Assembly (NCBI GenBank): GCA_964565945.1 | Contig: CAZMGY010000021.1 | Span: 194,054-226,053, forward strand | Source of the DNA: an uncultured bacterium | Lineage (GTDB): Bacteria; GCA-001730085 | DNA: 32,000 bases | Reading direction: 5' to 3' | In this document: piece by piece, positions 9,408 through 25,068 of the stretch | How positions within the stretch are numbered: position 1 is the stretch's first letter | Layout: every line of letters starts with the position of its first letter | Made by a program: the position numbers and the translations under genes | The notes under the pieces: generated by a model | Seen by the model: only the letters and a program-made list of their open reading frames with translations | What the model was told of the DNA's origin: nothing | The model's database searches: none

Positions 9408-9431
9408 CAAGCGCAGTGTGCTTGCTTTTTG
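9408..9431 (+). terminator. Candidate intrinsic terminator downstream of the murJ / CN-hydrolase unit
   Basis: CAAGCGC-AGT-GTGCTTG forms a 7-bp stem with one G-T pair and a 3-nt loop. It is followed by CTTTTTG. Confidence 0.35.
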
Positions 9432-9470
9432 TATTATCCAATAAGTATACTTTACAAAGCATAAAGTGTA
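9422..9470 (+). promoter_or_regulatory. Promoter-like element P1 with an overlapping inverted repeat (candidate operator)
   Basis: TTGCTT (9422-9427), an 18-nt spacer, then TATACT (9446-9451). The inverted repeat is TATACTTTAC-AAAGC-ATAAAGTGTA (9446-9470). Its core ACTTTA-N7-TAAAGT is perfect. Confidence 0.35.
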
Positions 9471-9522: not shown

Positions 9523-9551
9523 TTTACAAAATAATATATACTTTATATAAT
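9523..9551 (+). promoter_or_regulatory. Near-consensus sigma70-type promoter P2 upstream of the MerR/secretin cluster
   Basis: TTTACA (9523-9528), a 17-nt spacer, then TATAAT (9546-9551). It lies 60 nt upstream of the MerR start. The spacer contains TATACTTTA (9537-9545), the same 9-mer as in the P1 palindrome. Confidence 0.45.
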
Positions 9552-9610: not shown

Positions 9611-9877
9611 TTGTTGGAAAAATTGTACCGTATTGGGGAAATTATGGAATACAGTGGTTTGTCTCGGCAAACTGTGCATTTATATACGCAGATGCGCCTG
9701 ATTCAAGAAAAGAAACGAACCCATTCTGGCTACCGGCTCTATGATGAATACGTCTTTAAACAAATAGAAATCATCAAAGCCTTACAGGCCTTAGGTTATA
9801 CCCTTTTAGAAATCAAAGATATCTGTGATCAGGGAAAAGTTAAGGAAGCATTCAAGAAACATGGGGTGAAGTTATGA
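9611..9877 (+). CDS. Small MerR-family HTH protein (88 aa) that lacks the long dimerisation helix and effector domain
   Basis: YRIGEIMEYSGLSRQTVHLYTQMRLIQEKKRTHSGYRLYDEYVFKQIEIIKALQALGYTLLEIKDI matches the MerR winged-HTH pattern. The RBS GAGGAG is at 9600-9605. The stop overlaps the next gene's start as ATGA (9874-9877). Confidence 0.8.
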   Translation: MLEKLYRIGEIMEYSGLSRQTVHLYTQMRLIQEKKRTHSGYRLYDEYVFKQIEIIKALQALGYTLLEIKDICDQGKVKEAFKKHGVKL

Positions 9878-11769
9878 GTAAACAAGATCTTCGTGGCCAA
9901 GTTTTGCTTAATGCAGGAGTGATCAATCAAGCGCAATTGGATAAAGCTCTAGAAATTCAAAAAGATAGTATGCAACGTATTGGGCATGTTTTGGTGGATG
10001 CTGGATTTATTTCGGAGGAGGAAATGTTATTGGCGATGGAGCGTCAGAGCGGCATCCCTTGGATCAAATTAAGACTATCGGATATTCAAGGCAGTGCCAT
10101 TGCTTTGATGTCTCAAGATATTGCTCAACGTTATGCGTGTTGTCCCGTTAAAGAAGAAGGAGAGATCTTGACGGTAGCTATTTCGGATCCTTTATCGTAC
10201 GAAGATATCGACGACATCCGCTTGGTTGTGAAAAAAGAGATCGAGCTTATTCTTGTTTCGGAGTCCAGTGTTTTAAGAGCGTTGAATCAATTTTACGAAA
10301 TTGATCCGAAAGAGGTTTTTGCGACGATGACGCCCAAACCTCATGAGAGTGAAATAGTTGAGGTCGAAGAGGTTCTTGAGGATGTATCGCGAGAAGATAA
10401 TATTGTACCAGTTGAGCTTGCGCCGTCTTCCGAAGTTGCTCCAGAGATATTTTCCGAAGAACCTGTGGAGGAAGAGATTTCCGAAGTGGTGGTTGAACCT
10501 GAGCTTGTGTCTATTCCCGAAAGTGAATCCGAAACGGATACGGCACAAAACCTAATAGACGAGAGTGAAGAACCTGTTGCCACTGTGCCCGAGGTTAAAG
10601 AAACGCTTGTCGAAGAGCCCCTTGTTTGGCTGGACAAAATGGAGGAGCAGGATTTTTGGGATCTTGTTCTTGATGAGGTTGATTTAGCGAGTGATATTTA
10701 TTTAGAAAATGACCCTGAAAATCTTAAAGTTCGCTATCGTGCGGATGGCGTGATTGTCAAAGAACAACTGATAAGCAAAAAGTCGCCCGTGTATCAAAAA
10801 TATTGGGAGGTTTTGTTGAAATGGAATGCTCAGTCGATGCAAGGGCCTATTCAGTCTTTGTTTGCCAATGTTGGTCGTTTGCAAAGGCGAGTCAAGTTGA
10901 CCTTTCTTTCGGATCGTTATGGACAGGATGTGCATTTGAAATGTTTATTTTACGAAGAACCTGTGACGAGTTTTGATCACTTGGGACTGAATGAGTTTTG
11001 CCATCAGCAATTGGAAGCATTCTTGATGCGAAAAAAAGGTGTTCTCCTTTTGTTGGGCGATGCCGATTCGGGTTTGAGTACGACGCTTAGGGTGTTGGGA
11101 CGATCTTTGTCGCAGCAAAAACGAAAGGTTCTTAGTTTTGAGCGTTTTATCGAATATGATGTTCCGGATATTTACCAATTTGAATCAGAGTCGTTTGAAC
11201 TAGGGTATATCTATCAAGACATGAGTAAAATTTTCGATATTAATCCCGATGTTTTTATCTTTGCTAATTTGCCTCAGCCAGCCTGGGCACATTTTTTGCT
11301 TGAGGCTTCTTTTTCTGGGAAATTAGTTGTTTTAGGAATGAATGCAAAAAACCTTAATAGTGTTTTTGTCAAAATTGAAGAATTAGGCGTGCACAAAAAC
11401 ATTTTTATTAACGAGATTGATTGCGTGCTTCGCCAAAGTTTATTTCGTCTTAATTGTCCTGGATGTGGGGATATTGATGAAAAATCTTCCGAGCATGATA
11501 TGAAGTATTTACTAGGGGAAGGTCTTTTCTATAAAGGGACTGGCTGTGAGTTATGTTATGCAACGGGTTATCAAGGGCGTCGAGCTATTTTTGATGTCTT
11601 GGAGGTTGATGAAGCTGTCAAAGAGTTGATGAAAAATGATATCACCGAAAAAGATATTAGTAAGATGCGTGCGGAGCAAGGTGGCGTTAGCTTGGCACAA
11701 GAGGCTGTCAGAATGATACAGGAACGGTACACGTCAATAGAGGAAGTTCAGAGAATTGGATTGGTTTAA
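9874..11769 (+). CDS. GspE/PilB/MshE-family protein with an MshEN-type N-domain, an acidic linker, and a catalytically degenerate ATPase core (pseudo-ATPase)
   Basis: The N-domain reads LRGQVLLNAGVINQAQLDKALEIQ-KDSMQ-RIGHVLVDAGFISEEEMLLAMERQ...ILTVAISDPL. The N2 region reads LASDIYLENDPENLKVRYRADGVIV. The P-loop position reads GDADSGLSTTL instead of GPTGSGKSTTL. The Asp box is SFERFIEY, the Walker B region is NPDVFIFANLPQ, and the His box is SGKLVVLGMNAK. The tetracysteine site is retained: CPGCG...GCELCYATGYQGRRAIFDVLEV. Confidence 0.85.
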   Translation: MSKQDLRGQVLLNAGVINQAQLDKALEIQKDSMQRIGHVLVDAGFISEEEMLLAMERQSGIPWIKLRLSDIQGSAIALMSQDIAQRYACCPVKEEGEILTVAISDPLSYEDIDDIRLVVKKEIELILVSESSVLRALNQFYEIDPKEVFATMTPKPHESEIVEVEEVLEDVSREDNIVPVELAPSSEVAPEIFSEEPVEEEISEVVVEPELVSIPESESETDTAQNLIDESEEPVATVPEVKETLVEEPLVWLDKMEEQDFWDLVLDEVDLASDIYLENDPENLKVRYRADGVIVKEQLISKKSPVYQKYWEVLLKWNAQSMQGPIQSLFANVGRLQRRVKLTFLSDRYGQDVHLKCLFYEEPVTSFDHLGLNEFCHQQLEAFLMRKKGVLLLLGDADSGLSTTLRVLGRSLSQQKRKVLSFERFIEYDVPDIYQFESESFELGYIYQDMSKIFDINPDVFIFANLPQPAWAHFLLEASFSGKLVVLGMNAKNLNSVFVKIEELGVHKNIFINEIDCVLRQSLFRLNCPGCGDIDEKSSEHDMKYLLGEGLFYKGTGCELCYATGYQGRRAIFDVLEVDEAVKELMKNDITEKDISKMRAEQGGVSLAQEAVRMIQERYTSIEEVQRIGLV

Positions 11770-13252
11770 AAAGCTAAAACAGAAGCTTAAGTCGTTTAAG
11801 AAGATAGGTGTTTTCACTTATGTGGGATTGGATGTTTTAGAAACATCGTTCCCTCAGTATGTGGTTCTTCATAAGACGAAGAAAACATTCTCTTTGTACG
11901 ATTGTGGGCGCATTTTTAATCGAGACGAAGTGTTGGGGAAGATTAAAGATCTTAATGTTAAAGTTGCTGTTTCAATCCCTCGAGATAAGGTGATTGTCCG
12001 TGTGATGGATATTTCTTATCAGGAATCGCAGAGTTTAGTTGAAGTGATTATGGAGCATGCTGAACAGGCGGTTCCCTTTGCTTTAGGGGAATTGTTCTGG
12101 AAATATTTTATTATTAAGAAATCCAAAAATAAAGCGGTTGTTATTTTTTGTGCAGTGACCAAAGAAAAATCGAATCAGTATGCCCAAGAGCTTAAAGGCA
12201 TGGGGCTTAAAAATGTAGTGATGACGGCATCCACCTTGTCTTATGTGAATACCTTCCTTTTTAATCATTGTGATGAGCTTTCGAACAAAAGTTACTTATT
12301 GGTTGATATTGGTATGCGGCAATTAGAGTTGTGCATTATCGAAGACGGTGTTCTTGTTTTGACGCGAAGCTTGAACCTCGGCATCGAATATATGTTGCGT
12401 ATGCTTATGGATAAGTTCGATATTGATTTTCCTACAGCTCAAAAAGTTGTGTTTGGAGCACCTAAAAACAAAGAAGAACCTGAGGAGGAAACGCTTTTGA
12501 ATGAAACGGTTGTACGTGAAGTTTTTCATGTTTGGACCGAGCGTGTCTTGCGCGAAATAGAGTTAGCGAAAAGGTTTTATGCTAGCAAATACGCCAAAAA
12601 AATCGACAGCTTAGTCATGAGCGGTTGCCCGATTCAATATGGTTACGATTTGGATTATATTGCGAATGTGATGAGCAAGCACTTTGACCTAGAAACGATG
12701 CTGTTAGACCCTCTGAAAAATGCTATTTTGGATCACCAATCCCTTGTGCATCAAGAGGATTTGCAACAGATCAATAGCTTGGCGATTCCTATGGGCTTGG
12801 CGCTTCAGTTGGTTAAGCAAGCTCCTCTGATGATCAATTTGAATGGGCAAGACAAAGATATTCGTGAAGAGAGTTCTTATTGGTCACATATGGCGGGACA
12901 AAAAAACAAAGTTTTGGCCATAGGTGTTGGCATTATTTTGTGTGTGTTGGCAGCCCAGAGTTATTTTATTAAAAAATCTCAGATCAAGAAAAATAAAGTT
13001 CTCAAATCGGAATATGTCTTGAGTCAAAAACAAGCAGTGACCTTTAAAAAGAAAATAAAAAAGCAAAAAGAAAAATTGGGACGTATTCATATTCCTCAAA
13101 GTCTTTTTTTAGATGTTCATACCTATTTTTCTCAAAAGAAGCAGGAGGAGTCCACACTAAGGTATGAGAAGTATTTGTTTCAATCTGGGAAGGGGATTGT
13201 TTATGCCAAGGATGCCGAGGGGCAAGAAGTGATTGAAGAGGTGACGTTATGA
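11756..13252 (+). CDS. GspL-like protein: a PilM-type actin-like cytoplasmic domain fused through one TM helix to a short PilN-like periplasmic coiled coil
   Basis: PilM-like blocks are FTYVGLDVLETS, KVAVSIPRDKVIVRVMDI and YLLVDIGMRQLELCIIEDGVLVLTRSLNLGIEYM. The TM helix is VLAIGVGIILCVLAAQSYFI. A Lys-rich coiled segment follows. The TTG start at 11756 overlaps the end of the upstream gene by 14 nt. Confidence 0.65.
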   Translation: MDWFKKLKQKLKSFKKIGVFTYVGLDVLETSFPQYVVLHKTKKTFSLYDCGRIFNRDEVLGKIKDLNVKVAVSIPRDKVIVRVMDISYQESQSLVEVIMEHAEQAVPFALGELFWKYFIIKKSKNKAVVIFCAVTKEKSNQYAQELKGMGLKNVVMTASTLSYVNTFLFNHCDELSNKSYLLVDIGMRQLELCIIEDGVLVLTRSLNLGIEYMLRMLMDKFDIDFPTAQKVVFGAPKNKEEPEEETLLNETVVREVFHVWTERVLREIELAKRFYASKYAKKIDSLVMSGCPIQYGYDLDYIANVMSKHFDLETMLLDPLKNAILDHQSLVHQEDLQQINSLAIPMGLALQLVKQAPLMINLNGQDKDIREESSYWSHMAGQKNKVLAIGVGIILCVLAAQSYFIKKSQIKKNKVLKSEYVLSQKQAVTFKKKIKKQKEKLGRIHIPQSLFLDVHTYFSQKKQEESTLRYEKYLFQSGKGIVYAKDAEGQEVIEEVTL

Positions 13253-13791
13253 AAAAGTTACAAGAACTTTGGCAACATTTCAACTTCTTTTCCTTCAATC
13301 ATCGAAGTGTCCTCATTGTGGGAGGGGGTTTTCTTATTTTGCTTATCGCTATTTTATGGATGAAAAGTCAAAGCCGAGCGTATTGCAATGAGAATGCCTT
13401 GTTAGAGCATCAAATTCATAAGTTTTGGGTCGAATATCAAAAGTTCCAGCAGAAAAATCACAAAGAGATAATGGCGATCAAAGAGATTGGCGTTCTCAAA
13501 AATGATAAGCAGATTGCCAAAGAGGGTAAGCGTCTTCGAGAAAAAATGATTAAAATAACTGAGCAAGCTATTTGGAGTGTGGATACTTTGCCTGCCAAAA
13601 AAGATAAGGGGATTATCAAACTAAGTTTTTTGCTCAAGTTTTCAAAGCCAACTTTGGCTAAAATTATGCAGGTGATTTATGTTTTAGAACAAGATGAAGA
13701 GTTGTTTTTTATTGACGAAATTGAGCTCACTAAGGGTGGAGCAGGTGTTAGTGCTAAACTCCTTTTAAAGAGGCTATACATTGCGAGGTAA
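13249..13791 (+). CDS. GspM/PilO-like bitopic inner-membrane assembly protein
   Basis: The architecture is a short cytoplasmic N-terminus, a TM helix (VLIVGGGFLILLIAILWM), a coiled coil, then a C-terminal alpha/beta unit (IIKLSFLLKFSKPTLAKIMQVIYVLEQDEELFFIDEIELTK). Its position is between the GspL-like and GspC/PilP-like genes. The ATGA overlaps the upstream stop. The call rests on architecture and context, not on strong motifs. Confidence 0.5.
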   Translation: MKKLQELWQHFNFFSFNHRSVLIVGGGFLILLIAILWMKSQSRAYCNENALLEHQIHKFWVEYQKFQQKNHKEIMAIKEIGVLKNDKQIAKEGKRLREKMIKITEQAIWSVDTLPAKKDKGIIKLSFLLKFSKPTLAKIMQVIYVLEQDEELFFIDEIELTKGGAGVSAKLLLKRLYIAR

Positions 13792-13794
13792 ATT

Positions 13795-14295
13795 GTGAAA
13801 TTTGTTGCTTTGAGAATGATTTTTGTTTTATTGGGACTTTTGGTGACAGGTCAACTCTATGCCGAGGCCAAAGCTTTTCAAAAAACGCCTTTGGACGAGT
13901 GGGATGTGTACAGGGGGGCGTTTCAGCTAGATATTTTTAGAGAGCCACGTATCGAGACCCAGTCTGTGAATAAGGGAGGAGAGATAGTGGTTTCGTTGGA
14001 TCAAAATCTTGGAATAGAGGCTGATGAGATGATGCAATCTCTTCAAGATATGGTGAGTTTGCCCCCCCCCGAAGAATGTATTGATATCGATTGGGCTTTG
14101 TACGATATCACAATCACGGGTGTCGGGTTTGTGAGTGGTCGTCCTAAAATCTTTTTTGAAAACAGGGCGACGGGAAAAAGTTATTATCTTGCCCAAGGGC
14201 AAGAAGAAGATGGAATTCGTGTTGAACAAATCAGGCGATTGGCTATTATTTTTAGAATTCAAGGGCAAAAGCTTAAGATTGATCGCCAATTTTAG
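13795..14295 (+). CDS. GspC/PilP-like periplasmic protein (signal peptide plus a small beta domain)
   Basis: The GTG start follows GAGG. The signal peptide is MKFVALRMIFVLLGLLVTGQLYA|EA. The C-terminal segment ITGVGFVSGRPKIFFENRATGKSYYLAQGQEEDGIRVEQIRRLAIIFRIQGQKLKI resembles the PilP / GspC-HR pattern. The gene lies immediately upstream of the secretin. Confidence 0.5.
   Translation: MKFVALRMIFVLLGLLVTGQLYAEAKAFQKTPLDEWDVYRGAFQLDIFREPRIETQSVNKGGEIVVSLDQNLGIEADEMMQSLQDMVSLPPPEECIDIDWALYDITITGVGFVSGRPKIFFENRATGKSYYLAQGQEEDGIRVEQIRRLAIIFRIQGQKLKIDRQF
14062..14070 (+). repeat. Homopolymer C9 inside the GspC/PilP-like gene
   Basis: Read directly: agttt g ccccccccc gaag. It encodes LPPPEE. Confidence 0.9.
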
Positions 14296-14327
14296 TATAA
14301 TAGTTTCGTGATGGAGGAAGTGTGTGC

Positions 14328-16814
14328 ATGAAATTAGTAATTCAGTTTTTTTTAATGACTTTGTTGGCTATAGGGCTGCAGGTTGATCTTGGGGCTCAGG
14401 AAATGGCACAAGGCCCGATGGTGTCTATGGATTTTCATGAAGTTGACGTGGATAGTGTTCTTCATTTTTTGGGAGAGGCTTCGGGTTTAACAATTGTTAA
14501 AGACCCTACATTAACGGGGACGATAAGTATTACCACTTTTGGGAAGACGTCGGTGGGACAAGCAATTAACATTTTGAATAGTGCTTTGAGTGTCAAAGGT
14601 TTTACGTTGGTCAAAACAGGGGAGGTTCTTAAAATAGTTCCCCTAGAAGGCGTTTCTAAAACCAATGTGAACGTATTTAAAGATTATAAGATGCCTGCGA
14701 ATGAACCTAAAGATGACACCGTTGTGACCAAAATGATTTCTTTGCAATATGCCAAAGCTAAAGATGTTGTTACGGCTTTGCAGCCGTTGGTGGGGCGATT
14801 TGGCTCGGCGATTGCTTACGAAAGAACAAATACGGTTATTATTACCGACGCTTCGGCCAATATTGCACGCTTAACCGACTTGCTTGAAGATTTGGATCGT
14901 CAAGTGACCTCTTTGGTGACACGTTCTTACAAGGTTCAGCATGCTGGGCTAAACAAGCTGAAGGACTTACTTAAACAAATTACTGAGCAGTATGAACACG
15001 AATTGGGGCACTTTGCAATCAATTCGGATGAAAGAACGCGAACCCTATTTGTGACCACCCTTCTGGATAATTTTGACATGGTTGAAAAGCTGATTTATCA
15101 GCTTGATCAAGGAATACCTCAGGTGCTTATCGAAATGGAAGTAGTTAGAATTCCTTACCGCAACATTGATGTTGATATACGACACCGTCTTTTTGAGTCA
15201 TCAAAATATGCACATGATAAAAAGGTGATGAACGAGGGTGATCAAATTTTTAATTGGAGATACAGTATTGATGCCGATGCCGATAAAATGTTTTCTTGGT
15301 ATGGGCTATCTGAAGATAAGGGTAAAGAAGAATTTACCTACAAGTTGAATGTGTTGTATGGACCCGAATATTTTGATGTGTATGCCTTACCGATGGTGAC
15401 TGTGGCTGAAGGGAGCCAAACCGAGGTATCTATAGGGCACGAAAATTATTTTTACCGCTTGGCTCCAATGACGCTCGACTTTAAAATTATTCCTCATTTG
15501 AATGAAGATGAAACAGTTACTTTAGAAATGTTCCAACATGTTCGAGGAGATTGGCTCAAAACGCAAGATGCCTATGCACGTTTGGTGGTTGCCAAGGATC
15601 AAACTGTTGTTTTAGGGGGGCTTAATGAGCTGCGTTTACCTCAAGACCGTCAGGTGGCCTCGGCGTATCGCGAAGATACCCACTATGTAAGCAATGAATT
15701 TTTGATTTTTTTAACTCCGCATATCATTTGGGATCCAGCTACGTTTAAAAAGAAAATTGAGAAACAGGCCAAGGAAGCGGCCCTTAAAGCCGAAAAACCC
15801 GATTTAAATCTTTTGTTTCCTGGTGGTTTTATGGAATTTGATTTGCCCAAAGTGTCTGCGATGACCAAACAGAAACATCCTACTCAAGATGATTTTGTAA
15901 GCCCAAATCCTGGGGTGGAGTTAAAGGTTGATGAGGGCTCACATGGGCCACCAACCCAAAGCAAATCCTATAAAATTTGGTGGAAGATGCAAGATTTTGT
16001 ACAATTGCCCGAGGAGCTTGTTGACATTAAAGAGGCAATGTCGGATCGCAACTTTGTTGACAGTGAGGTGAGAAGCCGTTTGCGCAAGGATGTTGTTCAG
16101 TTTATGGAGAATGTTCGTGCCGAAGAAACCTTGGGCATGGAGCCCGATGTGAGCTTGAAAACCAAAGTGACACCTGTTCCCGAAAAAGAGAATTATGTTC
16201 TTAAAGAAACACTCTATCGTCGAGGTATTTCTTTTTACAAAAAACAACAGTATAAAGGGGCGATTCGTGAATTTGCTCCGATTATGAGTATCGATCCAAA
16301 CTATAAGAATGTGCAAAGATATATGCAGTTATCACAACAGCGTTACAAAGAACAGTTATCGGATTTGGGAGAGCGCAATAATATCGAAAAGGCCATTAAA
16401 GACAAGGCCTTGAAAGAATTGACCCAAACATACACGACGATGGATCAAAAAATCAAACAGGTGTCTCAGGCAGAGTCGATGGGAGCTTACACCAAGAGTG
16501 ACAAGTTGTTTAATTATATTGGAGAGCCTAAGGATATTCCTTCCGATCGCATTGAAAAGTCATTGACCGATCACTTAGCGGGAGAAATCTTGGAAGTTAG
16601 TGCTGCTCAACCCCTTGTGGTGATTAATCTTGGTTCGATTCAGAATGTTCATCCAGGGATGGCTTTCAAAGTGTATCGGGATCAGGAGTTTATCGGTAAA
16701 GTTCGTGTGTCCGATGTTGGAGAGCATGTTTCTGGAGCCGAGGTGGTTTCGACCAAAACTCCGAAAACAACTTTTCGTTTTGGAGATAAGGTGGTACAGG
16801 CCCTTGTAGCATAG
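14328..16814 (+). CDS. Secretin (GspD/PilQ family) with N0/N1/N-type domains, a short divergent secretin domain and a C-terminal extension of about 360 aa
   Basis: The ATG at 14328 lies 10 nt after GGAGG. The signal peptide is MKLVIQFFLMTLLAIGLQVDLGAQE. N0 reads VSMDFHEVDVDSVLHFLGEASGLTIVKDPTLTGTISI...KGFTLVKTGEVLKIVP. N1 reads TKMISLQYAKAKDVVTALQPL...ERTNTVIITDASANIARLTDLLEDLD. The secretin core reads PQVLIEMEVVRI...LDFKIIPHLNEDETVTLEM...QTVVLGGL...EFLIFLTPHII. After about 15735 comes a non-secretin tail with a TPR-like unit (YRRGISFYKKQQYKGAIREFAPIMSIDPNY) and a terminal beta-barrel-like unit. Confidence 0.85.
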   Translation: MKLVIQFFLMTLLAIGLQVDLGAQEMAQGPMVSMDFHEVDVDSVLHFLGEASGLTIVKDPTLTGTISITTFGKTSVGQAINILNSALSVKGFTLVKTGEVLKIVPLEGVSKTNVNVFKDYKMPANEPKDDTVVTKMISLQYAKAKDVVTALQPLVGRFGSAIAYERTNTVIITDASANIARLTDLLEDLDRQVTSLVTRSYKVQHAGLNKLKDLLKQITEQYEHELGHFAINSDERTRTLFVTTLLDNFDMVEKLIYQLDQGIPQVLIEMEVVRIPYRNIDVDIRHRLFESSKYAHDKKVMNEGDQIFNWRYSIDADADKMFSWYGLSEDKGKEEFTYKLNVLYGPEYFDVYALPMVTVAEGSQTEVSIGHENYFYRLAPMTLDFKIIPHLNEDETVTLEMFQHVRGDWLKTQDAYARLVVAKDQTVVLGGLNELRLPQDRQVASAYREDTHYVSNEFLIFLTPHIIWDPATFKKKIEKQAKEAALKAEKPDLNLLFPGGFMEFDLPKVSAMTKQKHPTQDDFVSPNPGVELKVDEGSHGPPTQSKSYKIWWKMQDFVQLPEELVDIKEAMSDRNFVDSEVRSRLRKDVVQFMENVRAEETLGMEPDVSLKTKVTPVPEKENYVLKETLYRRGISFYKKQQYKGAIREFAPIMSIDPNYKNVQRYMQLSQQRYKEQLSDLGERNNIEKAIKDKALKELTQTYTTMDQKIKQVSQAESMGAYTKSDKLFNYIGEPKDIPSDRIEKSLTDHLAGEILEVSAAQPLVVINLGSIQNVHPGMAFKVYRDQEFIGKVRVSDVGEHVSGAEVVSTKTPKTTFRFGDKVVQALVA

Positions 16815-16897: not shown

Positions 16898-18790
16898 ATG
16901 AATACACAGAGACCCCAGAATCCTAAAAACACTCAAGGTCAACCGTCTCAGAATCCTAAAAATGGTAAAAACCTTTGGATATGGCTTATGATTGCTTGTG
17001 GTATTTTCTATTTTATGTACATGGGCCAGATGGTCTCGGAGCAAACCCCCGATTTGAGTTATTCCGACTTTTACCGTGCGGTGCAAGCAGGGCAAGTGAA
17101 GTCGGCGATTAAAACGGGCAATATCATCAAAGGTAGCTTGGCGGATGGTTTGTCGTTCAACGTCTATGTGGAAGAAAATGATTCGCAGTTATTGCCAACC
17201 TTAAGAGAAAATATTCTAGACTTTAAAATCGCGCCGCCCAAAACCTTTTTGATCAATCTGGCCTATTCGATGGGACCGATGATTTTATTCATTGCCTTTT
17301 TATGGTTCTTTGTTTACCGCAATATGGCGGCTTCTGGCGGGAAAATCTTTTCTTTTGGCAAAAGTAAGGCGAAGATGAGCAAACCTGGACAAACCACCTT
17401 TGCCGATGTGGCGGGTGTTGACGAAGCCAAAGAAGAACTTAAAGAGATTATCGACTTTTTGAAGGAGCCTAAAAAATTTCAGCGCTTAGGTGGAAAAATT
17501 CCTAAAGGTGTGTTGCTTGTTGGTGCCCCTGGAACAGGAAAAACTTTGTTGGCCAAAGCGGTTGCGGGCGAGGCGGGTGTGCCATTTTTTAGTATGAGTG
17601 GTTCGGACTTTGTGGAGATGTTTGTTGGCGTGGGGGCTTCTCGAGTGAGAGATTTGTTTGAGCAAGCCAAAAAGAGTGCAGAAATCAGTGGCAAAGGAGC
17701 AATTGTGTTCATTGACGAGATTGATGCGGTCGGTCGCCAGCGTTTTTCTGGCATTGGCGGTGGGAATGATGAGCGTGAACAAACCTTGAATGCTTTGTTG
17801 GTTGAAATGGATGGCTTTGGTGGGACTGGAGGGGTGATTTTGATTGCCGCTACGAATCGCCCCGATGTTTTGGATCCAGCCTTGTTGCGTCCTGGCCGTT
17901 TTGATCGCCAAGTGGTTGTAGACCGCCCCGATATTAAAGGGCGAGAAGACATATTGAAAGTGCATTCCCAAAAAGTGAAGTTGGATCCCCTTGTCGATCT
18001 TTCGATTATTGCAAGGCAAACTCCGGGATTTTCGGGAGCTGACTTGGCGAATCTTGTTAATGAAGCGGCGTTGTTGTCGGCACGTAAAAACCTCAAAGCC
18101 GTTGGCATGAAGCAGCTCGAAGAGGCCTTTGAACGCGTGGTGGGGGGGTTGGAACGTAAAAACCGAGTAATTAGTGATGAAGAGAAAAAAGTGATTGCCT
18201 ATCATGAATCGGGTCACGCGATTTTAGCGGCATTGATTCCAGAAGTCGACCCTTTGCATAAAGTTTCGATTGTGTCTCGGGGAACTGCTGCTTTGGGCTA
18301 CACAATGCAGCTTCCTTTAACCGATAAGTATCTGAAGAGTAAGAAAGAATTCTTGGGTGAAATCACTGTTCTTATGGGGGGACGTTTGGCTGAACAGACC
18401 TTTTTGGGCGATATCACCACGGGAGCATCTAATGATTTTGAACGAGCGACATCAATGGCGCGTCATATGGTGTCTCGTTATGGTATGAGTGATGAAATGG
18501 GGCAGATGATTTATGGTCAAAGTGATGGTGGAGAAGCCTATTTTGGGCATGGGTTGGGCATGTCGCGTGATTATAGCGAGCAAACCTCGTTGGCTCTCGA
18601 TCAAGAAGTTCGTGCTATTTTGGATGCTTGTTATCAGCGTGGGTATCAAATGATTCTTGAGTATAAAAGTGAGCTTGAGGCGTTGGCGCAGTTGTTGCTC
18701 GATAAAGAAATTGTTGATGCCAAAGATGTGAAAGAGATTTTATCTAAAAAACAACAGGCCGACATTGAGTTGCCTGCCGACGCATCTTAA
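16898..18790 (+). CDS. ftsH: ATP-dependent zinc metalloprotease FtsH
   Basis: Walker A is [28 protein letters not shown]. Walker B is [14 protein letters not shown]. The SRH is [22 protein letters not shown]. The zinc site is HESGHAILA. The ATG at 16898 follows AAGGA. The ORF-track start at 16823 is probably too far upstream. Confidence 0.95.
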
Positions 18791-18793
18791 TTG

Positions 18794-19591
18794 ATGGGGC
18801 CAACCCGGATTGTCGGTGTTCTTAATGTAACATCAGATTCTTTTTTTGATGGTGGCGTTTATGCCCAGGTCGAAGATGCTCTAAAGCGTGCTCATACTAT
18901 GCAAGAGCAAGGTGTGGCCTGGATTGATATTGGGGCCGAATCCACTCGTCCAGGTAGTGAGCCTGTTTCCGAAGAGGAAGAACTCAAGCGGTTGCACGTT
19001 ATTTTGCCAAGGCTTGTGAAGGAGGTATCAATTCCGGTATCGATTGATACCTCGAAGTCTCGTGTGGCTGCGTGGGCTTTGGAGCAGGGCGTGCAGATGC
19101 TTAACGATGTTTCGGCCTTGCGCAATGATGCCGAGATGGTGAAGGTGGTGGCCGACGCGAAGGCTCCTGTTGTGATGATGCATGCCTTAGGACCACCCAA
19201 AACGATGCAAAATCAACCATTTTATCAGGATGTTGTTGCGGATATTTGTGCTTTTTTCGAAGAGAGATTAGAATACTGTTGTGCGCATGGGGTGGCTCAA
19301 AACCAAGTGATTCTTGATCCTGGCATAGGGTTTGGCAAAACCCTTGGGCATAATCGAATGATTTTGCAAGCGATGCCACGGTGGAAAAGTTTGGGGCAAG
19401 AGCTGTTTTTTGGTGTATCGCGCAAAGGCTTGTTAGGCGATTTATTGGGGTGTGAACCTTCAGAGCGCCTGGCAGGGACCTTGGCGTTGCATACCTGGCT
19501 TATTGAGCATGAGGTGGATTATTTGCGTGTGCATGATGTGCAGGAAACTGTGGATGTGATGCGCGTTTGGGCATCGTTAAAAGAAGCTTAG
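18794..19591 (+). CDS. folP: Dihydropteroate synthase
   Basis: Motifs are IVGVLNVTSDSFFDGG, IDIGAESTRPG, ISIDTSK, LNDVSAL and LDPGIGFGKT. Confidence 0.92.
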   Translation: MGPTRIVGVLNVTSDSFFDGGVYAQVEDALKRAHTMQEQGVAWIDIGAESTRPGSEPVSEEEELKRLHVILPRLVKEVSIPVSIDTSKSRVAAWALEQGVQMLNDVSALRNDAEMVKVVADAKAPVVMMHALGPPKTMQNQPFYQDVVADICAFFEERLEYCCAHGVAQNQVILDPGIGFGKTLGHNRMILQAMPRWKSLGQELFFGVSRKGLLGDLLGCEPSERLAGTLALHTWLIEHEVDYLRVHDVQETVDVMRVWASLKEA

Positions 19592-19603
19592 GAGAGATTA
19601 AGC

Positions 19604-20398
19604 ATGGAATTATTGGCCGCCATGTTTCAGAAAGAAAATTTTATTTGGTTTTTTCTGTATGCTTGGCGTCCTTTTGTCGAGATTTTTATCATTGCGATGG
19701 CCATTTATAGTATCACCACGTTTATTCGAGGAACGCGCACGGAACAATTGCTCAAAGGCTTAGGGCTCATTTTTGTGATTTTTGTGATTTCGCAAAAATT
19801 AGAGTTTCTCACGATCAGTTGGTTGCTCACCAAAGTGTTTGCGATATCCGTGATAGCATTTTTGATTTTGTTTCAGCCCGAACTGCGGCGGGCTTTGGCT
19901 AAAATTGGGCAAAACCGTATCTTTGGTAACTTTTTAAGAGAGAAAGGTTTTATTTACGAAATTGTCAAAGCTTCCTTGTTTTTGTCGAAAAAACGGATTG
20001 GTGCCTTGATTGTGGTGGAGCGCAATACGGGACTGGGAAGCTATATTGAAAGTGGTATTTTTTTAGATGCGCGCTTGAGCAGTGAGTTGATCACGAGTTT
20101 ATTTATGCCAACAACGCCTTTGCATGATGGTGCTGTGATTGTGCAAGGGGAACGTATTGCGGCGGTCGGATGTTTGTTGCCGCTCACAGAAAATCCTGTT
20201 CAACAACGTTTAGGAACGCGCCACCGGTCTGCGATTGGTTTGACCGAAGAAACCGATGCGGTTGTGGTTGTGGTTTCTGAAGAGACTGGTATTATTTCGG
20301 TGGTGAGTGAAGGTCATATCACCCGGGACTTAGGCGAAAAACGCTTGTCGGATGTGTTAGAACGATTGATTCTATCAGATGAAGGGTTAGAGGTATGA
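19604..20398 (+). CDS. cdaA: Membrane-anchored diadenylate cyclase (c-di-AMP synthase, DisA_N/DAC domain)
   Basis: Three N-terminal TM helices are followed by a DAC domain with the DGA motif (PLHDGAVIV) and the RHR motif (GTRHRSAIGLTEETDAVVVVVSEETG). Confidence 0.9.
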   Translation: MELLAAMFQKENFIWFFLYAWRPFVEIFIIAMAIYSITTFIRGTRTEQLLKGLGLIFVIFVISQKLEFLTISWLLTKVFAISVIAFLILFQPELRRALAKIGQNRIFGNFLREKGFIYEIVKASLFLSKKRIGALIVVERNTGLGSYIESGIFLDARLSSELITSLFMPTTPLHDGAVIVQGERIAAVGCLLPLTENPVQQRLGTRHRSAIGLTEETDAVVVVVSEETGIISVVSEGHITRDLGEKRLSDVLERLILSDEGLEV

Positions 20399-20871
20399 CA
20401 GGTTTTATGCACAGAGACATCAAATACAAAATCATTTCATTGGTATTGGCTGTGATTATTTGGTTGTATGTGCGTGGAGAGTTGGGTAAACCGGGTTTTT
20501 TTTATCATCAAGTACGTGGCCAGAGCAAACGGACGTTTGAGAACATTCCTATCCGTATTTTGGAAGTGTCTAGCAACGAGATGCGTTCGGTTGTGGTTAA
20601 GCCCGAAAGGATTACGCTCGATGTGTCGGTACCCAGGGCGCTAATAAATACGTTTCAAATTAAAGATATTATGGTTTTTGTTAAAGTAGCAGGTTTGCGC
20701 GATGGGAGCTATGAAACCTTGGTTCAGGTGGATGTGCCCGAGGGCGTTCTTGTTTTGTCGGAGATTAAACCTGTTCAGCTCACCATCAAAACACCTCCTT
20801 CGCGAGCGGGTTTGGCGGGACTTATTTTTTCTCAGGAACTGATTCCTGTTCAAGAGAAGGTGGCGTTATGA
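20395..20871 (+). CDS. cdaR: YbbR-domain protein (short CdaR-like partner of CdaA)
   Basis: An N-terminal TM helix ([14 protein letters not shown]) is followed by a YbbR-like repeat ([11 protein letters not shown]...[14 protein letters not shown]). The start overlaps the cdaA stop by 4 nt. Confidence 0.65.
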
Positions 20872-21587
20872 ATCGTTTAGGTGTCAATATTGATCATGTG
20901 GCCACCTTACGCCAAGCGCGGATGATTGATTATCCTGATCCAGTTGAGGCGGCTTTGCTCAGTGAAAAAGAGGGCTGTCATGGCATCACAGCACATCTGC
21001 GTGAAGATCGGCGTCATGTTCAAGATGAGGATATTCGTCGCTTGCGTAAGATGGTAAAAACACGTTTGAATTTAGAGCTTGCTTTTGCTAAGGACGTGAT
21101 GCAATTGGCCTTAGAGATTAAACCTGACCAGGTGACTTTTGTGCCTGAAAAACGTGAGGAAATTACGACGGAGGGAGGTCTGGATGTTCGTGACACAGCT
21201 TTACTTGCCCGACTGTTGCAGCCCTTTGTGGATCAGGGGATCAAAGTAAGCTTGTTCATTGATCCCGACCAAGAACAGTTGGATGCATCGCTTGCCCTCC
21301 ATGTGCCTTGTGTGGAACTTCATACGGGAGCTTATGCCGAAGCCGCAAATGAAGAGAAGCGTCAACAAGAATTAGAATGTCTCCAAAAAGCGACCGCTTA
21401 TGGACTTAGTTTGGGGCTTCAGATGAATGCGGGGCATGGACTTCACTACGACAATGTGGGTGCTATTGTGGCGATTCCAGGGATTGACGAGCTCAATATT
21501 GGTCATTCGATTGTGTCCCGTGCAGTTTTTGTTGGGATTCAGCAAGCGGTTCACGAAATGTTGGTGGCGATGGGAGTCCTAAGATGA
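20868..21587 (+). CDS. pdxJ: Pyridoxine 5'-phosphate synthase
   Basis: Motifs are [41 protein letters not shown] and NAGHGL. Confidence 0.93.
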
Positions 21588-21964
21588 TTGCAGGGATTGG
21601 TACCGATGTGATTGAGATTGATCGGGTTCGCAACAGTCTAAGACGTTTTGAAGAACGTTTTTTGAATCGAGTGTTTACTCCTCAAGAACAAGCCTATTGC
21701 CAAGTTAAGGCTGATCCCGCGATTCACTTGGCGGGACGCTTTGCGGCTAAAGAAGCTTTTTTAAAAGCCTTAGGCAGTGGCTTACGTGGTGAATTGTCTT
21801 GGTTGGATATGGGAATTTGCCACAATGATCAAGGTGCACCGTTTTTTCAATTGAGTGAGCGCTTGCAACACCGTTTGCGGAAAGCTTCGATTACCCGGCA
21901 CCATGTGACACTTTCTCATAGTCATACCATCGCAAGCAGTACGGTGATTCTCGAACATGAATGA
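21584..21964 (+). CDS. acpS: Holo-[acyl-carrier-protein] synthase
   Basis: Motifs are [12 protein letters not shown] and [16 protein letters not shown], with LSHS near the C-terminus. The length is 126 aa. The conserved pdxJ-acpS adjacency is present. Confidence 0.9.
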
Positions 21965-22820
21965 GATGATTCGGCGTAGCTTGACGCAACTTTTGGATCG
22001 AGACCAGGATACTCACAAGGGATCCTGCGGACATATTTTGATTGTAGCTGGTTCTCCAGGAATGACTGGTGCTGCCTTTTTTGCTGGCATGGGCGCTTTG
22101 CGCTGTGGTGCAGGTTTGGTATGTGTGGCCGTGCCACAGTCTTTGAACCCTGTTATGGAAGTCAAGTTGAGTGAAGCGCTAACCTTACCTTTACCTGAAA
22201 CGCATGGTGGAATGGTGAGCTTAGAAGCTCTCGATGATATTGTGTTCTATTTGGAGCGTTGTGATTCCTTGGCTTTAGGGCCAGGCTTATCTTTGCACCC
22301 CGAAACAAAAGACGCTGTTCATCATCTTGTCGAAGATGCGAAGGTTCCGGTTGTTTTAGATGCCGATGGGTTGAATGCCTATCAAGGGAATGTGCTTAGG
22401 CTTAAGTCTCATCTTTCTGAGTTAGTGATTACACCTCATCCAGGCGAAATAGCGCGTTTATTGAATATTCCCATTGCCGATGTTCAAGAGGCTAGGCATG
22501 AGGTGGCACGTGAATTTGCCGAAACCTATTGTTGTGTGGTGGTGCTTAAGGGGCACGAAACCTTGGTCTATGATCCGGAAGGTGCGTATTATGTGAATGA
22601 GACTGGTAATCCTGGTATGGCAACGGGAGGGATGGGGGATATTTTAACTGGTATGATTGCGTCTTTGCTAGGCCAAGGTTTAGAGAGTTATGAGGCGGCA
22701 ACCTTGGCGGTTTATTTGCACGGGCGTGCGGGTGATTTGGCAGCGCAACAAAGGGGTGCTTTAAGTCTTTTGCCCAGTGATGTTTTGAATCATTTCACCC
22801 AAGAGCTTTGGTCTGTTTAG
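21957..22820 (+). CDS. nnrD: ADP-dependent NAD(P)H-hydrate dehydratase (YjeF C-terminal type)
   Basis: Motifs are HKGSCGHILIVAGSPGMTGAAFFAGMGALRCGAGLV, VLDADGLN, ITPHPGEIARL and GNPGMATGGMGDILTGMIASLL. Confidence 0.85.
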   Translation: MNEMIRRSLTQLLDRDQDTHKGSCGHILIVAGSPGMTGAAFFAGMGALRCGAGLVCVAVPQSLNPVMEVKLSEALTLPLPETHGGMVSLEALDDIVFYLERCDSLALGPGLSLHPETKDAVHHLVEDAKVPVVLDADGLNAYQGNVLRLKSHLSELVITPHPGEIARLLNIPIADVQEARHEVAREFAETYCCVVVLKGHETLVYDPEGAYYVNETGNPGMATGGMGDILTGMIASLLGQGLESYEAATLAVYLHGRAGDLAAQQRGALSLLPSDVLNHFTQELWSV

Positions 22821-22825
22821 GCTTT

Positions 22826-24088
22826 TTAATAAGATAATATCGCTTTACAAAGACTGTGAATGGGATCCTCTGTGTGCACTAATGTGATAAAGTTGGCTTC
22901 ATAGCCTGAGGGTGATAAATAAACACGGTGCTTGAGTGCATGGTGATAAAAATCGGCAAAGGTGTCATGATTACATGCTTGCACATCCTCAAAAGTACGA
23001 AGGAGGGGTTGCTCTGTGAAGAAAAGAGTGAACATGGAGCCAATGCTTTGCAATGTGATGGCGAGGGAATTTTGATTGATGGCTTCATGCATCGCTTGAA
23101 TCGCTTGGTTAGCATGTGAATTGAGCTTGGTATAAAAATTTGGTTGTTGCAATTGCTCGAGAGTGGCTAGTCCAGCGGTCATAGCAATCGGATTGCCCGA
23201 CAATGTGCCTGCTTGATACACATTGCCGCAGGGGGCTAGGTGTTGCATAATGTCTTTGCGGCCCCCAAAAGCGCCCACGGGAAAACCCCCACCAATAATT
23301 TTACCCAAACAGGTCATGTCGGGTATGATACCAAAGTATTCTTGAGCGCCTCCTAAAGTCAAGCGAAAGCCGCTGATGACTTCATCGAAAATAAGGACGC
23401 TTCCGTATTTGTCTGTGACTTCGCGCAAGATTTGCAAAAAACCATCTTGGGGCAAAATGACGCCCATATTGGCGGCTACTGGTTCGACAATGACGGCGGC
23501 GACTTGGTTTCCTTTGTCTTGAAACAGTTTTTGGACGGCTTCGCTATTGTTGTAAGGAAGACAAATCACATCTTGAACCACAGCTTGCGGGACGCCTGCA
23601 CTGGAGGCGGTGCTGATTTCGGAGAGGCCTGAACCTGCTGAGACCAAAAGATAGTCGGCATGGCCATGGTAGCAACCTTCAAATTTAACGATTAGGTCAC
23701 GCCCTGTATAGCCTCGTGCTAAGCGTAGGGCACTCATAGTGGCTTCGGTTCCGGAGCTGACACACCTGACTTGTTCAAGTGAAGGAACACAGTCAACGAG
23801 TTGTTCAGCTAAGCGAATTTCTTTTTCGGTGGCACAGCCAAAACTGGTTCCTTGATCTAAGGCAGTGTGAACGGCTTGGAGAATGTTGGGCTGTGTGTGA
23901 CCCATGATCATAGCACCCCACGATTGACAAAAGTCGACATAGGCTTGGTTGGCGATGTCGTAGATGTGGATGCCTTCGGCACGTTCCATAAAAATAGGTT
24001 GTCCACCCAAATTTTTGAAAGCGCGAACAGGGCTATTAACTCCGCCAGGGATAACGTTAAGGGCTTGATCCAGTAAAGATGAGGTCAT
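22826..24088 (-). CDS. hemL: Glutamate-1-semialdehyde 2,1-aminomutase
   Basis: Motifs are GGVNSPVRAF, FDEVISGFR and CLGKIIGGGFPVGAFGG (PLP lysine). The start is taken as the ATG at 24088, which forms an ATGA overlap with the hemB stop. The ORF track extends to an upstream TTG at 24112. Confidence 0.93.
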   Translation of the reverse strand: MTSSLLDQALNVIPGGVNSPVRAFKNLGGQPIFMERAEGIHIYDIANQAYVDFCQSWGAMIMGHTQPNILQAVHTALDQGTSFGCATEKEIRLAEQLVDCVPSLEQVRCVSSGTEATMSALRLARGYTGRDLIVKFEGCYHGHADYLLVSAGSGLSEISTASSAGVPQAVVQDVICLPYNNSEAVQKLFQDKGNQVAAVIVEPVAANMGVILPQDGFLQILREVTDKYGSVLIFDEVISGFRLTLGGAQEYFGIIPDMTCLGKIIGGGFPVGAFGGRKDIMQHLAPCGNVYQAGTLSGNPIAMTAGLATLEQLQQPNFYTKLNSHANQAIQAMHEAINQNSLAITLQSIGSMFTLFFTEQPLLRTFEDVQACNHDTFADFYHHALKHRVYLSPSGYEANFITLVHTEDPIHSLCKAILSY

Positions 24089-25068
24089 GATGAGTGTCCT
24101 TCGTGTTGCCAATAGCGTAGGCTATCGTAGGTGATGATCCAGTTGGCGCCAGCACGTTTAAAACTATAAAACACTTCTTGTATAGCAGGATGTAAATCGA
24201 GAGCTCCAGCCTCCACCGCATGATGAATCATCATATATTCGCCCGAAACATGGTAGACCGCTAAAGGGGAATGCGGGAATTCTTGGTGAATGCGATAGAG
24301 AATATCCAAATAGGTGTGGCCAGGTTTAACCATAACGGCGGTAGCACCCTCTTCGATATCGGCGCGCACTTCTTCAATTGCTTGCGAGCCATTGCGCGGG
24401 TCCATTTGGTAGGTGCGACGGTCACCAAAGCTTGGTGTTGAATCGACCGCATTGCGGAAAGGTCCATAAAAGGCCGAGGCATACTTGGCGGCATAGGCCA
24501 TAATATGAACATGTTTCAATCCATGTAGGTTGAGTTGATGACGAATGGCGAGTACTTGCCCATCCATCATGGCGGACGGAGCCACATAATCGGCACCAGC
24601 TTGTGCATGTGTCAAAGCCATCTGCGCCAGTTGTTTGAGACTTTCGTCGTTCAAAATAGCGTTGCCTTTCACAAAACCGCAATGTCCGTGGGAGGTGTAT
24701 CCGCAAATACAAATATCGGTCATCACGGTGACGCCTGGACAGTGCTTTTTGATCGTTTTTACGGCGAGAGGTACAGGGTTATGTTCGTGAGAACTGTAAG
24801 AGCCTATGTCATCATAGAGGTGGGGTTCGACAGCGCCAAATAAGAGCACTTTGTTAACCCCTAAAGTTTGCAGGTAAGCAACATCTTTAAGAAGTTCGTC
24901 CACTGACAGGTGAAACACATTGCTTAACGAGGGCATCGGGTTGCGAATGCCAGAGCCGTCCACCACAAAAAAAGGTTGAATAAAATCTTCTGGACACAAG
25001 GAAACTTCGCTGTGGCTATCGCGAATGGACTGATCTGATCTGAGGTGACGAAATCTTTGAAACTTCAT
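24085..25068 (-). CDS. hemB: Porphobilinogen synthase (delta-aminolevulinate dehydratase), Zn-type
   Basis: The cysteine-rich zinc motif is DICICGYTSHGHCG. Other motifs are VAPSAMMDGQV, AAKYASAFYGPFR, YQMDP, VMVKPG and YHVSGEY. Confidence 0.93.
   Translation of the reverse strand: MKFQRFRHLRSDQSIRDSHSEVSLCPEDFIQPFFVVDGSGIRNPMPSLSNVFHLSVDELLKDVAYLQTLGVNKVLLFGAVEPHLYDDIGSYSSHEHNPVPLAVKTIKKHCPGVTVMTDICICGYTSHGHCGFVKGNAILNDESLKQLAQMALTHAQAGADYVAPSAMMDGQVLAIRHQLNLHGLKHVHIMAYAAKYASAFYGPFRNAVDSTPSFGDRRTYQMDPRNGSQAIEEVRADIEEGATAVMVKPGHTYLDILYRIHQEFPHSPLAVYHVSGEYMMIHHAVEAGALDLHPAIQEVFYSFKRAGANWIITYDSLRYWQHEGHSS

Follow-up and report, generated by a model that had tools for sequence, protein, structure and literature searches.

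The closest described counterparts of the gene cluster considered here are the pilMNOPQ-type operons of competence systems and type IVa pilus (T4aP) machines, and most T4aP organisms encode the platform protein, pilins, prepilin peptidase, and active motors apart from them. In Escherichia coli, hofMNOPQ is a stand-alone five-gene operon between mrcA and aroK, and the gsp operon holds all parts of a type II secretion system (T2SS) together. In type IV filament machines, cyclic di-GMP (c-di-GMP) is known to tune the motor ATPases, and the N1 domain of GspE binds the cytoplasmic domain of GspL (PDB 4PHT). In the superphylum PVC (Planctomycetes, Verrucomicrobia, and Chlamydiae), Akkermansia muciniphila carries a cluster of five genes, Amuc_1098 to Amuc_1102, which encodes the secretin Amuc_1098, small envelope proteins, and the PilM/FtsA-like protein Amuc_1101 (PMC5332112). 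Here, we describe a six-gene cluster at positions 9611–16814 of a 32,000-nucleotide stretch (hereafter, the window) of contig CAZMGY010000021.1 from an uncultured bacterium. With a probability of about one half, we read this cluster as a pilMNOPQ-equivalent scaffold/secretin operon of a machine of the type IV filament family, joined by a catalytically dead, c-di-GMP-sensing paralogue of PilB/GspE, in a deep PVC lineage related to the bin AB1_div.

The six open reading frames (ORFs) lie on the same strand and are overlapping or tightly spaced, as the initial annotation of this DNA had described. Their coordinates, and those of the parts discussed below, are as follows.

9611..9877, + strand, mini-MerR, 88 amino acids (aa), winged helix-turn-helix (HTH) only, MerR_1 match
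9874..11769, + strand, PilB/GspE-like pseudo-ATPase, 631 aa, MshEN and T2SSE matches, overlap of 4 nucleotides (nt) with the MerR gene
9895..10047, + strand, putative MshEN c-di-GMP-binding motif pair of the pseudo-ATPase (aa 8–58), two 24-residue motifs with a 5-residue spacer
11756..13252, + strand, gene 3, fusion of a PilM domain with a transmembrane (TM) segment, PilM_2 match, one TM helix, 14-nt overlap with the pseudo-ATPase gene
13249..13791, + strand, gene 4, 180 aa, bitopic inner-membrane protein, 4-nt overlap with gene 3
13795..14295, + strand, gene 5, 166 aa, N-terminal signal/anchor and beta-rich C-terminal domain, 3-nt gap after gene 4
14322 (GTG) or 14328 (ATG) to 16814, + strand, secretin, whole ORF
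14322..15737, + strand, secretin proper, with signal peptide, N0, two Secretin_N, and a divergent barrel (~aa 262–472)
15738..16814, + strand, C-terminal extension of the secretin, ~360 aa (aa 473–830), with linker, tetratricopeptide repeat (TPR) unit, and terminal beta-rich domain

From the first gene to the fourth, neighbours overlap by 4, 14, and 4 nt; genes 4 and 5 are 3 nt apart, and the gap before the secretin gene depends on the start codon (26 nt for GTG 14322, 32 nt for ATG 14328). No convincing terminator was found inside the cluster, where terminator-like matches are no commoner than in shuffled sequence. The domain assignments given below bear out the earlier description of a PilB/GspE-like, PilM-type, secretin operon. 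The cluster is more than a chance arrangement, because the same gene order recurs in relatives, for which the initial annotation had proposed a survey: the five-gene core is found in the loci L007 and L017, and part of it in L008 and L018. With E and M denoting the pseudo-ATPase and PilM genes, L007 reads E-M-x-x-secretin-ftsH and L008 reads E-M-x, and L018 contains, in order, a CN hydrolase, MerR, the pseudo-ATPase, and PilM. L017, a contig of the same Bugula neritina metagenome run that yielded AB1_div, has a cadherin/RTX-like protein, the pseudo-ATPase P0055, a PilM-like protein of 486 aa, proteins of 172 and 151 aa, a secretin of 964 aa, and, on the opposite strand, tatA. The first of these (positions 3–6131 of L017) is at least 2042 aa long; it contains cadherin domains and internal repeats spanning several hundred residues, and its C-terminus is of the RTX calcium-binding type. 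In addition, the ftsH region of the window (16898–25068; ftsH-folP-cdaA-x-pdxJ-acpS ... hemL-hemB) is syntenic with AB1_div contig MDLB01000094 (L009), on which ftsH is preceded by a P-type ATPase gene and not by the secretin cluster; the location of the cluster has therefore shifted as these lineages diverged. Conserved and relocatable, the five-gene core constitutes a module under selection, and at least two lineages have MerR alongside it. When GTDB genomes and JGI metagenomes were scanned with the pseudo-ATPase and PilM alignments, no further relatives emerged, the search patterns being too narrow or the lineage absent from these collections.

With pilMNOPQ and hofMNOPQ, the cluster shares the order of PilM, bitopic membrane proteins, a small periplasmic secretin-binding protein, and secretin, the separation from motor, platform, pilin, and peptidase genes, and a PilM domain recognised by both sequence and fold. 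It differs from them in the fusion of PilM to the first membrane protein, in the addition of an apparently dead PilB/GspE paralogue and a mini-MerR in front, in a secretin that has GspD-like N domains and a 360-aa C-terminal extension and no AMIN domains, and in genes 4 and 5, which are unrecognisable as PilO and PilP by sequence. The likeness to the GspC-L-M/E/D part of the T2SS consists of a gene 3 with GspL architecture, a secretin nearest to GspD/XcpQ, and an E-family gene adjoining the L-like gene, whereas GspF, pseudopilins, and GspO are missing, the E protein is probably inactive, the actin-like domain is of the PilM rather than the T2SSL type, and all proteins fall far below the NCBIfam cut-offs for GspE and GspD. 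The Akkermansia cluster, also from the PVC superphylum, likewise combines a secretin and small envelope proteins of unknown family with a PilM-like protein, but no pseudo-ATPase or MerR has been described there, and genes 4 and 5 of the window match no NCBIfam model.

Neither the 32-kb window nor the 8.7 kb on its upstream side encodes a pilin, GspF/PilC, prepilin peptidase, or second ATPase, in agreement with the initial annotation, which had found the cluster to lack platform, pilins, and peptidase. A canonical T2SS or type IV pilus (T4P) gene set just outside the window, which that annotation had envisaged, is likewise absent from the 8.7 kb upstream, and the ~2.5 kb visible downstream contain no T4P or T2SS gene. 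The absence of these parts, to which the same annotation had drawn attention, is ordinary for pilMNOPQ-type operons, and hofMNOPQ of E. coli also stands alone. The interest of the locus thus lies in the conserved pseudo-ATPase sensor, the mini-MerR with its palindrome, and the extended secretin, and not in the absence of platform and pilins.

The pseudo-ATPase is composed of an MshEN N-terminal domain (Pfam, E 1e-16), an acidic linker (~aa 144–270), and a degenerate N2D and C-terminal domain (CTD) with a Cys4 zinc site (T2SSE PF00437 over residues 271–627, E 1.9e-34). It scores far below the NCBIfam cut-offs of both PilB (176.7 bits; cut-off 675.65) and GspE (166.6 bits; cut-off 630.25). In the alignment with active PilB/GspE enzymes, the Walker A sequence GPTGSGKTTTL is replaced by GDADSGLSTTL, the Asp box EDPVEY by ERFIEY, the Walker B sequence VGEIRD by FANLPQ with loss of the catalytic glutamate, and the His box GHLVxSTLHTND by GKLVVLGMNAKN, and the arginine-finger stretch RLPQDGR is absent. 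In four relatives, the Walker A lysine is replaced by I, V, I, and V, respectively. The tetracysteine zinc site is kept, with C528, C531, C558, and C561 invariant across all family members. The alignment upholds the earlier statement that every catalytic motif is ablated, and this PilB/GspE homologue is, as judged from its motifs, catalytically dead.

The losses are common to five lineages (including those with partial pseudo-ATPase genes on L007 and L008), whose proteins are 36–68% identical to each other. Between the window and L007, the identity is 68% for the pseudo-ATPase, 68% for the secretin, 64% for the FtsH N-terminus, 42% for the PilM-TM fusion, 35% for gene 5, and 26% for gene 4. 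The pseudo-ATPase is therefore under constraint, since its identity matches those of the secretin and FtsH and exceeds those of the other cluster proteins. The disappearance of all catalytic motifs and the fast divergence of genes 4 and 5 could also be taken as signs of a decaying remnant, that is, a former T2SS/T4P operon that has lost its platform and pilin genes and whose ATPase is drifting to a pseudogene. This explanation is close to refuted, because the pseudo-ATPase ranks with the best-conserved cluster proteins and different lineages share the same substitutions; moreover, five lineages have intact reading frames, and the zinc site, the c-di-GMP motifs, and the overlaps of start and stop codons have all persisted.

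An exhaustive search of 1.84 billion representatives yielded 27,618 relatives of the pseudo-ATPase, of which just three, P0055, P0056, and the fragment P0095, are members of its degenerate family. In a protein collection clustered at 90% identity, the cluster that contains the pseudo-ATPase is represented by a 47-aa fragment, and a word-index homologue search thus missed the family. The best active PilB relative (P0057) is encoded by an orphan gene in an unrelated genome. Five MshEN-bearing PilB-like proteins from unrelated organisms (P0106, P0117, P0151, P0154, and P0182) have the Walker A lysine changed to G, I, R, or T. The two that were looked up, P0117 and P0154 (loci L029 and L030), are orphans that do not lie beside pilus, PilM, or secretin genes, and the coupling of a degenerate PilB-like protein to a PilM/secretin operon therefore looks specific to the present lineage. 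Among the papers searched, none describes a degenerate PilB/GspE within a pilM-secretin operon.

The best-conserved segment of the pseudo-ATPase is the c-di-GMP motif pair, with 57–69% identity within the family, followed by the CTD (38%), N2D (25–26%), and the acidic linker (~18%). The curated cut-off of the NCBIfam model for MshE-related c-di-GMP motifs (NF053729; 38 bits) is exceeded in three of three full-length family members (55.3 bits for the window, and 51.9 and 56.3 bits for the orthologues). The published definition of MshEN has a pair of 24-residue motifs with five residues between them (PMC5013675). Compared with this definition by eye, motif II (R35–Q58) fits (RIG...Q), with Met at both LxxxL positions as permitted by the relaxed motif of the same study (PMC5013675); the spacer has exactly five residues; and motif I (G8–Q29) is complete except for LRG in place of RLG, a deviation invariant in the family. 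The pseudo-ATPase thus keeps an MshEN module of the c-di-GMP-binding type, which would enable it to bind the nucleotide. Vibrio cholerae MshE has the same tandem 24-residue motifs, 5-residue spacer, and N1-N2-CTD-zinc architecture (PMC5013675). However, MshE and PilB-type proteins are active motors tuned by c-di-GMP, whereas the ATPase site is destroyed in every member of the present family, and motif I reads LRG. Myxococcus xanthus PilB binds c-di-GMP through MshEN, and the nucleotide-free, Walker A-mutant form of this protein signals independently of pilus assembly (PMC5544727; reviewed in PMC11656802). There, one active enzyme plays both roles, whereas in the present cluster a separate paralogue is fixed permanently in a non-catalytic form.

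The protein encoded by gene 3 matches PilM_2 over aa 62–351 (E 4e-20, 72.5 bits; Pfam gathering cut-off 27), and the T2SSL profile reaches only E 0.061 (13 bits; cut-off 25.5). It scores 82.3 bits against the PilM subfamily model TIGR01175, below the cut-off of 133, and 82 bits (E 5e-23) against the NCBIfam model of the Amuc_1101 family, whose cut-off is 650. A single TM helix (aa 387–405) is followed by a periplasmic tail of ~93 aa, which gives only noise against E. coli GspL in hhalign. PilM proper is soluble and binds the N-terminal peptide of a PilN encoded separately, whereas the gene 3 protein is joined to a TM segment of its own. In a Foldseek search with a low-confidence AlphaFold2 (AF2) model (three sequences; predicted local distance difference test (pLDDT), 47), PilM structures take the first 10 places among the PDB matches (E 5e-13 to 1e-9), and EpsL/GspL first appears at rank 29. 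The sequence and fold searches together indicate that gene 3 is of the PilM rather than the GspL type, most probably a PilM+PilN-like fusion with a GspL-like architecture. Of the initial description as a "GspL-like PilM/N fusion", the architecture stands, but the actin-like domain belongs to the PilM type.

Genes 4 and 5 are far more divergent. The gene 4 protein has a TM helix at aa 20–38 and 142 aa beyond it, in which the alignment, viewed by eye, shows a helical stretch followed by a small C-terminal portion of alpha/beta type, and its orthologues are 20–26% identical. No match to it was obtained, also with the orthologue alignments, in Pfam, NCBIfam, and PDB profile searches, or by hhalign against E. 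coli GspM, HofO, and HofN. The gene 5 protein consists of an N-terminal signal/anchor, a variable linker, and a conserved beta-rich C-terminal domain (~aa 105–166) with the block TGxGFxxGxPxIFFENxxTxKxYYLAEG...LKV; it also gave no significant match in Pfam, NCBIfam, PDB profile, or hhalign searches, orthologue alignments included. In the hhalign panel used for both proteins (E. coli GspB, GspC, GspL, and GspM, and HofM, HofN, HofO, and HofP), the scores were indistinguishable from controls. Two gene 5 orthologues show weak matches, below the cut-off, at the same site (E 0.0024 and 0.11) to T2SSB, which we take to be the profile of the conserved periplasmic domain of GspB. The first-ranked Foldseek match of gene 5 is Myxococcus PilP, which is not significant (E 0.58) and comes from a single-sequence AF2 model with pLDDT of 40. 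The periplasmic domain of GspB is a homology-region (HR) domain, which has the fold shared by GspC-HR and PilP and binds the secretin N0 domain, and known HR domains are just 10–17% identical to each other (PMC9239104). It is plausible, though unproven, that gene 4 is a PilO/GspM analogue, in view of its operon position, bitopic N-in topology, and size, and that gene 5 is an analogue of PilP, the GspC HR domain, or GspB, in view of its position, topology, and these weak hints. Their initial labels, "GspM/PilO-like" and "GspC/PilP-like", are thus in keeping with position, size, and topology, and the profile searches neither confirm nor refute them.

The N-terminal part of the secretin is readily recognised, with a GspD N0 domain (PF21305, E 1e-11) and two copies of Secretin_N (PF03958, E 7e-21), and aligns to E. 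coli GspD in hhalign with 98% probability. The barrel is divergent: its PF00263 match (E 0.01, 16 bits) is below the cut-off of 27.5, and its hhalign alignment to the E. coli GspD barrel spans 172 columns with a probability of 75% (E 2.6e-5), where controls reach 0.1–0.2%. The closest solved relatives are GspD/XcpQ of the T2SS (E 8e-26), followed by PilQ (E 9e-11), and the NCBIfam scores are below the cut-offs of both GspD (148 bits; cut-off 351) and PilQ (93 bits; cut-off 284). The C-terminal extension, conserved in L007 and L017, contains a TPR unit (~aa 627–677) and a conserved terminal beta-rich domain (~aa 740–830) with the motif PLVVINLGSxQNxHxGMxFxVYR...GDK and weak hints of FlgT_C. In L017 (~12050–13532), it has two significant TPR units (E 1e-10). 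No relative of the terminal domain was found in PDB searches, nor is it a GspD S-domain. The c-di-GMP module, its conservation across the lineage, the palindrome described below, and this extension are additions to the initial annotation.

That annotation had offered two readings of the cluster, as a regulatory or structural module for a machine whose genes lie elsewhere, or as a secretin conduit that works without a motor; we favour the former. In the latter case, the five core proteins would be the complete apparatus, a c-di-GMP-gated conduit or signalling device without motor or filament, in a genome with no platform, pilins, or motor anywhere. A hexamer of the pseudo-ATPase would cap the cytoplasmic side, and its c-di-GMP state would be relayed via the PilM-TM protein and genes 4 and 5 to gate the secretin, or signals would run in reverse. 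The only ATPase homologue of the module has lost its catalytic motifs in every lineage seen, and no partner genes occur in the ~43 kb around the cluster. The core also moves as a unit, lying between CN hydrolase and ftsH genes in the window and between cadherin/RTX-like and tatA genes in L017, and being absent from the ftsH locus of AB1_div. The unusual, conserved 360-aa extension of the secretin points in the same direction. However, pilMNOPQ/hofMNOPQ operons as a rule stand alone and without exception serve machines whose genes lie elsewhere, the absence of partners concerns the local ~43 kb, and we know of no secretin system that works without an energised inner-membrane partner. A self-sufficient conduit is thus quite unlikely, and a module that serves a machine encoded elsewhere is preferred.

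The first gene of the cluster encodes a protein with a MerR_1 match (PF13411; E 5e-12, 46 bits; cut-off 21.6) over residues 6–74. It ends at residue 88, without the long dimerisation helix and the C-terminal effector-binding region, and the NCBIfam models of metal- and redox-sensor MerR proteins align solely to its residues 1–70 and score far below their cut-offs. Two features precede the gene.

9449..9467, + strand, palindrome ACTTTA-N7-TAAAGT, in a 26-nt block shared with L018, overlapping a TTTACA −35-like hexamer
9523..9551, + strand, putative sigma-70-like promoter TTTACA-17-TATAAT (11/12 consensus match), ~60 nt 5' of the MerR start

The 26-nt block is identical at 24 of 26 positions between the window and L018, in otherwise diverged flanking intergenic DNA. 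The palindrome is unique in the window (0.12 occurrences expected with one mismatch or fewer), is found in identical form at the same place in L018 (889–907), and is absent from L017, a locus that has no MerR gene. The spacer of the promoter-like element holds a second TATACTTTA half-site-like motif. This palindrome, upstream of the MerR gene and also retained by a second lineage, is reported here for the first time; it fits a MerR-type operator to which the mini-MerR may bind.

The stop codon of the MerR gene overlaps the start codon of the pseudo-ATPase gene (ATGA) in both the window and L018, and the mini-MerR is 76% identical to its L018 orthologue, where the pseudo-ATPase is only ~38% identical. 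Together with the co-occurrence of palindrome and MerR gene and the reduction of the MerR protein to 88 aa of HTH only, these features raise the possibility that the two proteins form a c-di-GMP-responsive transcription unit, in which a MerR without effector and dimerisation regions would borrow the pseudo-ATPase as its sensor subunit and act via the palindrome on the operon and perhaps on other genes. In that case, the pseudo-ATPase would be tied to the machine through regulation and not through physical contact. Precedents for such a unit are the c-di-GMP-binding MerR-type regulator BrlR and the ATPase-derived regulator FleQ. On the other hand, L017, which is of the AB1_div type, carries the pseudo-ATPase and the whole core without MerR, which argues for a MerR-independent role of the pseudo-ATPase, and its gene always lies directly before the PilM gene and overlaps it. 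We regard this explanation as rather unlikely, and note that it is partly compatible with the scaffold/secretin operon proposed above.

Under our preferred interpretation, a scaffold/secretin operon with a sensing paralogue of the motor, the secretin would form the outer-membrane pore, and gene 5 would bind its N0 domain through an HR domain of the PilP/GspC/GspB type. Gene 4 would pair with gene 3's membrane tail in the inner membrane, in the manner of PilN/PilO (GspL/GspM), and the PilM domain of gene 3 may form a cytoplasmic ring. The dead PilB/GspE paralogue, presumably unable to hydrolyse ATP, would retain the parts for docking and sensing (MshEN/N1, zinc site, and overall fold). It probably sits on the PilM ring, where motors bind, in place of the motor ATPase and makes the assembly or activity of the machine dependent on c-di-GMP, acting as an adaptor or placeholder that competes with the real motors, or as a gate. 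The mini-MerR, probably coupled translationally to the pseudo-ATPase, would control the operon via the conserved palindrome, and other parts of the genome would supply the platform protein, pilins, peptidase, and active motors.

Several points weigh against this interpretation. The ~43 kb surrounding the cluster revealed no pilC/gspF, pilin, pilD, or active pilB/pilT gene. Searches with genes 4 and 5 gave nothing significant for PilO/GspM or PilP/GspC, and the structure models of genes 5 and 3 are of low confidence (pLDDT 40 and 47). The N domains of the secretin are closer to GspD of the T2SS than to PilQ, yet gene 3 is of the PilM type, so that the cluster cannot be cleanly assigned to either T4aP or T2SS. 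The change of RLG to LRG in motif I moves the stacking arginine by one position, and c-di-GMP binding is therefore not assured; a sensor role moreover presupposes that the organism produces c-di-GMP.

The remainder of the window is occupied by housekeeping genes. Upstream of the cluster are those for a sigma-54 activator, a 1,2-beta-oligoglucan phosphorylase, murJ, and the CN hydrolase, the last of which is closed by a terminator-like hairpin (9408–9424). The 8.7 kb preceding the window encode ATP synthase, ferrochelatase, an M48 peptidase, DsbD, and cation efflux. The secretin gene is directly followed by ftsH, with a likely start at 16898 by comparison with L007; the 83-nt spacer between them has no promoter-like site of 9/12 or better, which leaves the initial claim of a promoter-like element belonging to ftsH weak. 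Further downstream in the window are folP, cdaA, pdxJ, acpS, nnr, hemL, hemB, a glycosyltransferase gene, ispH, and ispG. Scans of the window for tRNA and Rfam families gave no match.

Several other observations were made in this neighbourhood. A 158-aa ORF without family match (20395–20871) lies between cdaA and pdxJ, overlapping the end of the former and the start of the latter; it has a 159-aa counterpart at the same position in AB1_div, and may encode a partner of CdaA. IspG (28001–29674) is a long form of 557 aa, in which an insertion of ~180 aa splits the GcpE profile match. After ispG, a giant ORF of more than 838 aa and without Pfam domain (29798–32000) runs off the end of the window; all retrievable contigs end ~2.5 kb beyond the window, within this ORF, which suggests internal repeats. 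The GC skew is positive in all 1-kb bins of the window (0.03 to 0.33) and its cumulative curve climbs without turning, and most of the large genes are on the + strand; the skew pattern fits a single leading-strand segment of a replichore.

With regard to the organism, the best named relative of HemB (59% identity) is from the "PVC group bacterium (ex Bugula neritina AB1)". The bin AB1_div (GCA_001730085.1) represents a deep PVC lineage that lacks FtsZ and has peptidoglycan genes (PMC5041132), and the paper describing it and its supplement contain nothing on pili or secretion (PMC5041132).

If the proposed interpretation is true, the cluster would represent a natural separation of function, in which a separate paralogue gave up catalysis and, through strong selection, kept the sensor and docking parts within a scaffold operon, and the pseudo-enzyme should reveal what PilB/GspE does at the basal body apart from catalysis. 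Should the genomes turn out to have neither pilins nor platform, the cluster would be the first example of a secretin system lacking a filament motor. The cluster also provides a first handle on the envelope machinery of a PVC lineage that is known only from metagenomes, including the bin from the bryozoan Bugula neritina.

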